Shown piece after piece: positions 1-17,151 of a stretch of DNA of 48,861 bases. Position 1 is the first letter of the stretch; each line of letters begins with the position of its first letter. The notes beneath the pieces are model-generated. The model saw only the letters and a program-made list of their open reading frames with translations. It ran no database searches and was not told the origin of the DNA. This DNA is from Minisyncoccota bacterium (GTDB lineage: Bacteria; Patescibacteriota; Minisyncoccia; Phycocordibacterales; UBA9973): NCBI GenBank assembly GCA_031972685.1, contig DALYEI010000006.1:1-48861 (forward strand). The letters run 5' to 3'. The position numbers and the translations under genes were made by a program.

Positions 1-175
1 GGTCAGACATACCGCGGTGAATACGTTCTCAAGTCTTGTACTCACCGCCCGTCAATTCAAGGGAGCCGGGAGTACCCGAAGTCTCTTCATAAGGAGGGCC
101 TACGGTAAGCTCGGTGACAGGGAATAAGTCGTAACAAGGCACGGGTAGCGGAAGCTGCTCGTGGAATAATTCAAT
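1..175 (+). rRNA. rrs: 16S rRNA, 3'-terminal ~175 nt (gene continues upstream of window; mature 3' end approximate)
   Basis: Universal 16S motifs GGTGAATACGTTC, CACCGCCCGTCA and AAGTCGTAACAAGG. Helix-45 hairpin at 140-163 (CACGGGTAGC-GGAA-GCTGCTCGTG). Confidence 0.9.
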
Positions 176-358
176 TTGAATGTATTAATGTTTTCTATAT
201 AAAACTTAATACGTGTCGATATTGTATACCTCAATTGAGTATACAATGGTCTTTATATAATACGGACCTAAAAAATTATATTGACAGAGAGGAAAGACTC
301 TTAATATTTTAAATAATATTAGAACGGAACAAAATAAAGGACAGCATAAAATAAAAAA

Positions 359-387
359 CCTATTCGCAAGAATAGGTTTTTTATTTT
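359..387 (+). terminator. Rho-independent terminator downstream of 16S
   Basis: CCTATTC-GCAA-GAATAGG stem-loop followed by TTTTTTATTTT. Confidence 0.7.
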
Positions 388-398
388 AGTTTATTTGT

Positions 399-410: not shown

Positions 411-1295
411 ATGAGTTCTACTCGTGTTGGAATAATTAGACATATAGATAATCCAAACTTCGAAAAGACAAGTGGTTTATTTGATATTTTTCAAAATGAA
501 TTAAATAATGATCAATATAAATTAGTTGATATTTTTATCGATGATAAAAATACTTGGCATCATTTAGGTATTCCAATACTGCCTATGGATTTACATCATA
601 AAGTAGATTTAGTGTGGAATGAAAACGATCCTCATATTGCTCAAACCCTTTCTCATATAGGTATTCCTCATGTTAGTAGAAATGCTTTTCATATTTTATT
701 AGAAAAAAATAAAAATAATTTAAAAAAATATTTAGAAAATTTAAATATATCTGCTCCAAGGAATCTAATAATCTCTCCATATCAAAAAGATATTGATGGT
801 GATCTAGAAATTTATGCTATGAAAAAAGCAAAAGAAGTTTGGAATAAATTTTCTCCACCGTATACTTTGCATGCAAGTAATGATAAAGATACAGCAATCT
901 TTACTGTTAAAACTTTTGATGAATTATTATCTCGTATCTATGAATTGTTAAGTAGAGGCAATGCTGTATTAGTTGAAGAAATTATTTTTGGAGATAAAAC
1001 TACTTTTCATTTTTTGCCGAATTTCCGTAATCAAGATTATTATAGTTTATCGCCCCTAGCTTTAAAGAAAGATATTAAAGATAAAATAGAAGAGATCGCT
1101 AAGACTTTAATTAATAATTTAGGCATAAAACATTATTTAAAAATCGATTTTATAATTAAAGGTAATACTCTATACATAGATAATATAAATACTAATTTAA
1201 ATTTACAAGATCAAGATTTTAAAGGACGTATTCATAATTTTGGTATTAAAAATAAAGATATCATTGAACATATTTTTAAAAATGCTACAATATAA
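411..1295 (+). CDS. ATP-grasp protein, divergent D-Ala-D-Ala ligase-like (key motifs degenerate)
   Basis: 294-aa ORF with Ddl-like layout (IGIPHVSRN..., LVEEIIFGDKTT, KIDFII...INT). The usual GGxSxEHxVS and KPxxxGSSxG motifs are not recognisable. Confidence 0.4.
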   Translation: MSSTRVGIIRHIDNPNFEKTSGLFDIFQNELNNDQYKLVDIFIDDKNTWHHLGIPILPMDLHHKVDLVWNENDPHIAQTLSHIGIPHVSRNAFHILLEKNKNNLKKYLENLNISAPRNLIISPYQKDIDGDLEIYAMKKAKEVWNKFSPPYTLHASNDKDTAIFTVKTFDELLSRIYELLSRGNAVLVEEIIFGDKTTFHFLPNFRNQDYYSLSPLALKKDIKDKIEEIAKTLINNLGIKHYLKIDFIIKGNTLYIDNINTNLNLQDQDFKGRIHNFGIKNKDIIEHIFKNATI

Positions 1296-11940: not shown

Positions 11941-13026
11941 TTATTCTAAAAACATTAGAGTCATTTTTTGTTCTTTTGGTTCAAAAAGAGTAATTTGGAA
12001 ATTATAGTTTTTACCTAATTCTAATTTTTCTCTTAGTTTTGATTCACCTCCTAGGGTAGAATTGTGAACAAGTCCAGCAACTCCTTCTTTAATAGAGATT
12101 AAAGCTCCGTGTTTATTATATTTAATAACAACACCTTTAATAATATCTCCTTTTTTAAGTTTACCTTCGTATTCTTTCCAAGGATTTTCTTTAAGAGCTT
12201 TAACTGATAAAGAGATTTTACCTTCTTTGATTTCGATAACGCGAGCCTTGATTTTATCGCCAACTTTAAACATTGAGCGAGGATCTTCAACTAGACCCCA
12301 ATCAAGTTCTGAAATGTGAACTAATCCTTCAAGACCGTCTTCTAATTTTAAGAATATTCCGAAATCTACAATACCAGCAATAGTGCATTCAATATCATCT
12401 CCGACATTATATTTATTTAATATTTCTTTCTTTTCGTCTGGATTATTGTCTTTTTCTGAGAAGATTAATTTACCTTCTTTTGGTAATGTAGAAATTATCA
12501 TTACAGAGATTTTCTTACCAATTAACTTCTTTAATTCTTTTAAGATTTTATCTTTATCAGAATCTAAAACGCGAGGGTAGTGATCAGTCTTAAGTTGAGA
12601 AGCTGGTAAGAATCCAGAAATTCCTTGCCATTCTAATATCAAACCTCCTTTATTAGCATCTTTAATTTCAAGTTCCATAACAGTTTTAGCTTTAATAGCT
12701 TTTTCTGCTTCACTCCAAATCAAAGCTTGCTTTGCTTCTTTGAGAGAGAGCTCTGTATAACCGTCTTCATTTTCAACTTCAACAACCTTTGCTTTAATAT
12801 TATCTCCTAAATTAATTTTCTTGATAATATCTTTAGCATTAATAAATTCTTTTCCGTATATAATACCAGTTCCATATGGAGCTAAGTCTACGAATACACG
12901 AGACTTTTCTATAGAGATAACAGGTCCTTCTACGATAGATTCTATCTCAGGCTTATTAACACTTTGTTCTAAAATAGATTTTAGAACTAAATTTTCTTCA
13001 CTTATTTCTTCTGTGTGTTTTTTCAT
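11941..13026 (-). CDS. rpsA: 30S ribosomal protein S1 (four S1 domains)
   Basis: 361 aa with repeated S1/OB motifs (G.V.....FG.F..L..G..GL.H.SE). Confidence 0.75.
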   Translation of the reverse strand: MKKHTEEISEENLVLKSILEQSVNKPEIESIVEGPVISIEKSRVFVDLAPYGTGIIYGKEFINAKDIIKKINLGDNIKAKVVEVENEDGYTELSLKEAKQALIWSEAEKAIKAKTVMELEIKDANKGGLILEWQGISGFLPASQLKTDHYPRVLDSDKDKILKELKKLIGKKISVMIISTLPKEGKLIFSEKDNNPDEKKEILNKYNVGDDIECTIAGIVDFGIFLKLEDGLEGLVHISELDWGLVEDPRSMFKVGDKIKARVIEIKEGKISLSVKALKENPWKEYEGKLKKGDIIKGVVIKYNKHGALISIKEGVAGLVHNSTLGGESKLREKLELGKNYNFQITLFEPKEQKMTLMFLE

Positions 13027-16617: not shown

Positions 16618-17151
16618 GTGTTTAGTGATCCACTTTCCAATTTAAAACTTTTTGATTTGTCTGAAAAAATGATAGTCGCTGATTTAGGAGCGGGGACTGG
16701 TTTTTATACTTTGCATGTAGCAAAGATGGTTCCTTTAGGCAAAGTCTATGCTATTGATATTAATAAAGATTTTTTGAAAACTATTGCTAATAATTCAACT
16801 GAGAAAAAAATCAAAAATATAGAAATTTTACATGCAGATTTAGAGCATAAAGAAGGTTCTAAACTTAAAAATGATTTAGTAGATAGAGCTATTATTTCCA
16901 ATATTTTATTTATGATTTCTGACCGGAAAACTTTTTTAAAAGAAGCAAATCGTATTTTAAAAGATGGAGGTAAAATTTTATTCGTAGATTTTTCTCCAGA
17001 TTCTATAATCTTAAAAAATACTAAACATAAAACTGTTACCAAAGAAGAAGCAAGAAAGATTTTCGAAGATGCAGATTTCCTTTATGAACGAGATATAGAG
17101 ACAGGAGATCACCATTATGGTATGATTTTTACAAAACCAATTAAAAAATAA
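16618..17151 (+). CDS. Class I SAM-dependent methyltransferase
   Basis: 177 aa with SAM motif I VADLGAGTGFYT. Confidence 0.75.
   Translation: MFSDPLSNLKLFDLSEKMIVADLGAGTGFYTLHVAKMVPLGKVYAIDINKDFLKTIANNSTEKKIKNIEILHADLEHKEGSKLKNDLVDRAIISNILFMISDRKTFLKEANRILKDGGKILFVDFSPDSIILKNTKHKTVTKEEARKIFEDADFLYERDIETGDHHYGMIFTKPIKK

Follow-up and report, generated by a model that had tools for sequence, protein, structure and literature searches.

Introduction

The pairing of the Shine-Dalgarno (SD) sequence with the anti-SD sequence of 16S rRNA is textbook bacterial biology, and lineages without the rRNA half of this helix are rare natural experiments. The closest described system is found among the Parcubacteria, of which only 48% were reported to have a detectable CCTCCT; the lineages without this motif overlap the group that lacks uL1, and SD helices are thought not to form in them (Tsurumaki et al. 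2022; RNA 28:1041; PMC9297842). The genome described here shares with that subgroup its lineage, the loss of CCUCCU as a lineage trait and a uL1 that could not be found. Anti-SD loss in Parcubacteria is thus already published, and our genome is one more member of the group and not a new kind of loss. That paper gives a detection rate only and leaves aside what replaces the motif, SD usage, the manner of initiation and the relatives that keep CCUCC, with which we deal here; its main text does not name Nomurabacteria.

Outside this subgroup, a 2024 survey (PMC10783764) places Campbellbacteria and Wolfebacteria among the CCUCC-lacking, "SD-scarce" organisms, and Amin et al. (2018; PMC6107228) found that taxa without an anti-SD also have no SD sites and no compensating motif. 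The taxa of these two studies resemble our genome in their CCUCC-less tail, in the lack of SD sequences upstream of genes and in the lack of a compensating motif, but they are mostly Flavobacteriia, Mycoplasma and insect endosymbionts, whereas here a whole order has lost the anti-SD and graded intermediates exist within one class.

Two further systems share only part of these features. Mycobacterium, Deinococcus and Haloferax volcanii are described as rich in leaderless mRNAs (PMC3986360; Cortes et al. 2013), with a −10 element that sets the transcript start at the start codon for a large fraction of genes, as we propose below. These prokaryotes keep a canonical anti-SD and SD sequences on some genes, whereas the leaderless starts reported here are predicted from sequence. 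In the Bacteroidota, work of the Fredrick laboratory on Flavobacterium johnsoniae has reportedly revealed an SD-independent initiation in which the anti-SD is kept but sequestered by ribosomal proteins. Our genome shares with this phylum genes without SD and an A-rich, G-poor region before the start, and it is the CCUCC-keeping relatives from the same class that the Bacteroidota resemble; Bacteroidota keep the anti-SD, however, and our genome has lost it, so it does not share their canonical anti-SD. To our knowledge, a leaderless promoter signature is not a hallmark of Bacteroidota either. For two of our observations we met no published description: the missing SD signal in genomes that keep CCUCC, and the pairing of the former anti-SD with the trailer in what is likely a small, covarying hairpin.

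The 3' end of the 16S rRNA

The window, by which we mean the whole analyzed stretch of 48,861 nucleotides, is contig C6 of a 590-kb, 33-contig MAG with 32% GC and 94.85% completeness. It opens with the end of a 16S rRNA gene:

1 to 176, plus strand: 3' end (last 176 nt) of the 16S rRNA gene (Rfam RF00177, model positions 1347-1533)
140 to 163, plus strand: helix 45 with a GGAA tetraloop and 10 pairs (RF00177 alignment)
164 to 176, plus strand: 16S 3' tail, GAAUAAUUCAAUU in place of GAUCACCUCCUUU, with AUUCA for the CCUCC core

The bacterial SSU rRNA model RF00177 matched positions 1-176 of the plus strand with 130.7 bits (E 2.5e-37) and posterior probabilities near 1, in an alignment that is cut by the contig end on its 5' side and reaches the last position of the model on its 3' side. 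The 3' minor domain, comprising the last part of helix 44 together with helix 45 and its GGAA loop, fits the covariance model. Helix 45 reads CACGGGUAGC-GGAA-GCUGCUCGUG and is formed by 8 Watson-Crick and 2 G-U pairs; among 21 sequences from the order its pairing is 100% maintained, and pair 6-19 switches between G-C and C-G. The first-pass annotation had described a fully paired helix 45 with the GGAA loop at 140-163, followed by a tail without CCUCC, and the alignment bears out both points: all 10 pairs are present, and the 13 nt at 164-176 read GAAUAAUUCAAUU where the RF00177 consensus is GAUcACCUCCUUu, with no CCUCC anti-SD core in the aligned tail. It had also found no CCTCC in the ∼200 nt that follow, and we can extend this to the plus strand of the first 600 nt, where the motif is absent.

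The genome, which is 95% complete, yielded no clear KsgA/RsmA for the GGAA loop of helix 45. Its sole RrnaAD/KsgA-like match scores 24.7 bits, marginally above the cut-off of 24, and lies at 16651-16851 of the window (plus strand), in a 178-aa ORF of a pilin operon; the dimethyl-A label that the first-pass annotation gave to the loop is therefore putative.

Shine-Dalgarno usage

For every genome we called non-overlapping ORFs of at least 80 aa from their longest start, a crude procedure, and counted those with GGAG, GAGG or AGGA (SD4) starting at −16 to −6 (near), with −50 to −40 as the control distance:

Own genome: 21/562 near, 32/562 control
E. coli, positive control: 26/56 near, 4/56 control
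Four genus and order relatives: 20/366 near, 21/366 control
Five class members of other families, CCUCC degenerate or lost: 65/760 near, 53/760 control
Seven same-class genomes from seven families, CCUCC perfect: 53/732 near, 77/732 control
Four CCUCC-bearing genomes from other classes of Patescibacteria: 57/406 near, 21/406 control (odds ratio 3.0, p = 2e-5)

The lack of SD motifs upstream of coding sequences, noted before for the window, is therefore true of the whole genome. No GGAGG-like enrichment, which would have spoken against the earlier reading of the tail, exists in it, and the same pipeline detected the signal of E. coli. A 5-mer SD core was found 4-11 nt before the longest-ORF start in 0 of 575 ORFs of the genome, and G content at −12 to −1 of its starts is only 5-10%. 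We also considered that some genes might be SD-bearing imports, but all 27 matches sit at internal candidate starts and none at a primary start, at about the frequency that chance would give inside genes (2.8% per position). We conclude that the SD:anti-SD helix cannot form in this organism and that its genome is without SD sites.

Erosion of the anti-SD across the class

The class sample comprised 161 genomes, which yielded about 97 genuine 16S 3' ends, about 34 of them canonical (CACCUCCUUUCU) and about 63 not. The latter include a graded series of tails, running from CAUCUCC through CACUUCU, UUUCUCC, UUUCUCU and AUUUCU to the AAUUCA of this order and to tails of A and U only, and the state of the tail is uniform inside a family but differs between families. 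One class thus shows the anti-SD intact, half-eroded and vanished, and this makes the Paceibacteria suited to asking in what sequence a mechanism of translation initiation is dismantled. No SD signal is visible in the class overall. Since the seven same-class genomes that keep a perfect CCUCC show no SD enrichment either, the comparison, made with seven canonical genomes and no rooted tree, suggests that the use of SD sequences was lost before the anti-SD itself decayed.

A probable hairpin between tail and trailer

Pairing is possible between the stretch now in place of the anti-SD and the first bases of the trailer:

169 to 181, plus strand: small hairpin AUUCA-AUU-UGAAU, made of the former anti-SD and the first trailer bases (minimum free energy fold; weak alone)

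This hairpin is present in the minimum free energy fold but not in the centroid fold, and at the level of the order it consists of only 4-5 A/U-rich pairs worth about −1.6 kcal/mol. The 4-bp helix reaches 79.8% pairing when the sequences of the order are aligned, and the ungapped alignment holds a single covarying pair, A-U to C-G, while further UUCC...GGAA variants occur in a shifted register among the order relatives. Because the ungapped order alignment gave only this one compensatory pair, the case for the hairpin rests mainly on a class-wide test, in which a stem of at least 4 bp was sought in any register and compared with 300 shuffles, a comparison that is inflated by the relatedness of the sequences. 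Such a stem was found in 19 of 24 canonical tails (shuffle mean, 8.3) and in 52 of 71 non-canonical tails (shuffle mean, 28.0), counts that 0 of the 300 shuffles reached in either set. The arms differ by family, as CUCCU/AGGAG, CUCUU/AAGAG, UUCU/AGAA, AUUUC/GAAAU, AUCCU/AGGAU, UUCCA/UGGAA and UUCA/UGAA. Judged from these sequences, the hairpin between the former anti-SD and the trailer is likely to be real.

A competing explanation is neutral decay, in which a tail without function drifted to A and U and the hairpin is a by-product of low complexity. Every change from CCUCC is indeed from C to A or U in a genome of 32% GC, the hairpin is thermodynamically marginal and many members of the class do not have it. 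Neutral decay, however, would have to accommodate the fact that 17 nt of the tail are conserved across 14 families while the adjoining trailer is not, that hairpins exceed the shuffles in canonical and non-canonical tails alike and that the arms vary between families in a compensatory manner, and we regard it as unlikely. The hairpin is most likely an element for the maturation or processing of the pre-16S 3' end, a role that would explain why 17 nt remained conserved after the mRNA-binding function was lost.

No evident replacement for the anti-SD in the tail or trailer

A different reason for the conservation of the tail, which extends over 17 nt across the order, would be that it serves as an alternative anti-SD, coevolved with a novel SD-like motif of A and U in the A/U-rich sequence before genes. 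The k-mer counts largely refute this. At −20 to −6 there is no excess of 6-mers that could pair with the tail (82 near and 87 far), complementary 5-mers rise less (417/347) than those of a reversed-sequence control (612/388), complementary words containing G drop (49 versus 56) and G, which the single C of the tail would need as its partner, reaches its minimum close to starts. In a study of 128 anti-SD-less taxa, a variant SD to match the tail was likewise not found (Amin et al. 2018; PMC6107228), and we consider such compensatory pairing very improbable.

The trailer itself is strongly structured at 177-260 (z = −5.3 for 128-260). One hairpin lies around 182-213, and two other elements follow it:

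221 to 247, plus strand: 9-bp palindromic hairpin in the 16S trailer, which holds ACCTCA (228-233)
347 to 388, plus strand: intrinsic-terminator-like hairpin with a T-run, at the end of the 16S transcription unit

This structure could be taken to favor a mature 16S whose 3' extension carries a CCUCC-like element of the trailer, such as ACCUCA at 228-233, and so provides the anti-SD farther downstream. With no CCTCC within 600 nt, with ACCUCA confined to the loop region of the palindrome in which the first-pass annotation had placed it, unconserved in relatives whose trailers diverge right past UUGAA, and with a genome that offers no SD sites to read, this too has very little to recommend it.

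Neither tRNAs nor a 23S gene follow the 16S gene between positions 177 and 410, a protein gene begins at 411 and an Rfam search found no LSU rRNA in the window; the rRNA genes are therefore unlinked.

A fixed trait of the lineage

The tail, in the form GA[AU]U[AU][AU]UUCAA[AU]UUGAA, was found in 12 genomes of the same genus and in 13 genomes from other families of the order, and none of these 25 carries CCUCC. Their sequences diverge right past the UUGAA of the tail, with the exception of one relative (L024) that matches the window exactly, far into the 16S trailer. In a whole-genome pattern search, helix 45 followed by CCUCC was present in 0 of 8 order genomes versus 213 of 401 genomes of the phylum sample. 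Motif scans of our own assembly returned this 16S fragment and one 23S 3' piece on contig C17 but no other 16S fragment, whereas a genome search with RF00177 missed even the 176-nt fragment; the 16S rRNA gene is probably single-copy. Neither a second rrs copy nor an order relative with CCUCC has therefore come to light to contradict the earlier observation and, because the same tail type occurs in 25 genus and order relatives, the CCUCC-less tail is a fixed lineage trait. There is next to no probability that it stems from misassembly at the contig end, from faulty sequencing or from an rRNA pseudogene beside a working 16S with CCUCC: the gene is truncated at the contig start, MAG rRNA genes are frequently assembled poorly and the assembly has no other rrs piece to compare, but the same or nearly the same tail recurs in 25 independent genomes, which include 100%-complete assemblies of few contigs with one 16S match each, the identity with L024 continues through the trailer, helix 45 with CCUCC is nowhere in the 8 order genomes, helix 45 is intact and covaries and the genome-wide lack of SD sites lends the tail independent support.

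Among order-level relatives (loci L015-L018; genomes G055, G039, G056 and G053), several 16S genes are 2.2-2.9 kb long or are matched in multiple pieces of the model, which probably reflects the intervening sequences known from 16S genes of the candidate phyla radiation (CPR).

Predicted leaderless promoters and start classes

The first gene after the rRNA illustrates the type of start that is frequent in this genome:

396 to 404, plus strand: extended −10 box TGTTATAAT, predicted to drive the first gene as a leaderless mRNA, with 6 nt between box and ATG (411)
411 to 1295, plus strand: first ORF after the rRNA gene, 294 aa, without SD, an example of a leaderless-type start

A TGnTAnnnT box (TGNTANNNT) lies exactly at −15 in 69 of 562 genes, against 4 of 562 at a control offset. 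TATAAT is found exactly at −12 in 59 of 566 genes and only 0-3 times at most other offsets, and the looser TANNNT occupies −12 in 131 of 566 genes over a background of about 27. Within this TANNNT set, 60% have G at −14, 78% have T at −1 and 95% have A at 0, and a TTG-like −35 element is visible upstream of the box; T at −1 is found in 63-78% of genes. All four relatives tested from the genus and order show the box signal (4-10% versus 0-1%); most other members of the class, and E. coli, have a weaker signal or none. With an extended −10 box at −15 to −7, transcription should begin at the A of the ATG, and the pattern predicts σ70-type promoters that place the transcription start site on this base and so give rise to leaderless mRNAs. 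Gene callers that rely on ribosome-binding-site motifs will misplace starts in such genomes, where the −10 box at −12 can serve to locate them.

Computational predictions from longest-ORF starts divide the genes into four classes:

Box at −13 to −11: 184/563 ORFs, about 80 expected by chance
No box, start within −25 to +10 of an upstream same-strand stop: 120/563 ORFs
Box at a nearby alternative start: 62/563 ORFs
Neither box nor coupled: 197/563 ORFs

In the coupled class, stop-to-start distances of −1, +1 and +3 dominate.

We found no paper in the literature that describes leaderless promoters or mRNAs in Parcubacteria, Patescibacteria or the CPR. In a genome from another class of the phylum (G076, loci L097-L101), the anti-SD is canonical, the SD signal is weak (18/97 versus 8/97) and a strong TGnTAnnnT box lies at −15 in 9 of 97 genes; leaderless-type promoters are therefore not confined to anti-SD-less lineages of Patescibacteria.

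Proposed course of the loss

Taken jointly, we hold with good confidence that the anti-SD has been lost across the order, that SD sites are absent, that three other routes of initiation are in use, that the use of SD was lost first and that the tail remains constrained by its hairpin. SD-dependent initiation would most likely have gone first, at the base of the class or earlier, after which the anti-SD would have eroded under relaxed selection. The CCUCC core would have decayed to AUUCA through changes from C to A or U that became fixed in the whole order, whose tail would then represent one end of a graded, class-wide erosion. The former anti-SD segment would still be constrained by its pairing with the first bases of the trailer in the small hairpin.

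Initiation could then proceed by three routes. Roughly a fifth to a third of genes would be translated from leaderless mRNAs transcribed from the TGnTAtaaT box at −15 to −7, and starts within a few bases of an upstream stop would be reached by re-initiation or coupling. The remaining genes would depend on A/U-rich, G-poor and unstructured 5' regions, probably with the aid of a ribosomal protein encoded in the window:

11941 to 13026, minus strand: bS1-like ribosomal protein gene, 361 aa, four S1 domains (PF00575, 125.4 bits, 4 stretches)

A more specific version of this account, in which SD initiation had ended by the base of the class, the anti-SD eroded repeatedly and gradually in many families and selection keeps not CCUCC but the tail-trailer hairpin as a checkpoint of 3'-end maturation, is a possibility that we advance tentatively. 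Selection on the hairpin would explain the order-wide conservation of the replacement tail.

Affiliation and ribosomal proteins

The relatives of the SecA protein at 73-91% identity come from MAGs of Candidatus Nomurabacteria or Paceibacterota, and on this sequence evidence the organism is therefore assigned to the Parcubacteria, as a Nomurabacteria-type member of the Parcubacteria/Paceibacteria within the CPR. Table 11 yields long, back-to-back ORFs, and because of this there is no sign of stop-codon reassignment in the genome; the stop codons of 575 ORFs are TAA in 478, TAG in 75 and TGA in 22.

uL1 (PF00687) was not found in the 94.85%-complete genome, a result that in a MAG is not absolute proof of absence, while all 14 of the 14 control genomes gave a match. 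The genes rplA, rplJ and rplL are usually placed after nusG-rplK, and here this place is taken by two ORFs:

39 to 1115 of locus L281 (contig C14), minus strand: ORFs of 230 aa and 125 aa after nusG-rplK, in the usual rplA slot

The 125-aa ORF matches no family. The 230-aa ORF was considered as a divergent uL1, a reading that we rejected because neither Pfam nor NCBIfam has a family that it matches and its sequence includes an H-D pair (VIHDFGE).

In other bacteria, ribosomal protein bS21 touches the anti-SD region. An 82-aa ORF on the plus strand of contig C12 (10036-10149, locus L136) gave a sub-threshold match to bS21, with 22.9 bits against a cut-off of 27, and may encode a divergent form of this protein.
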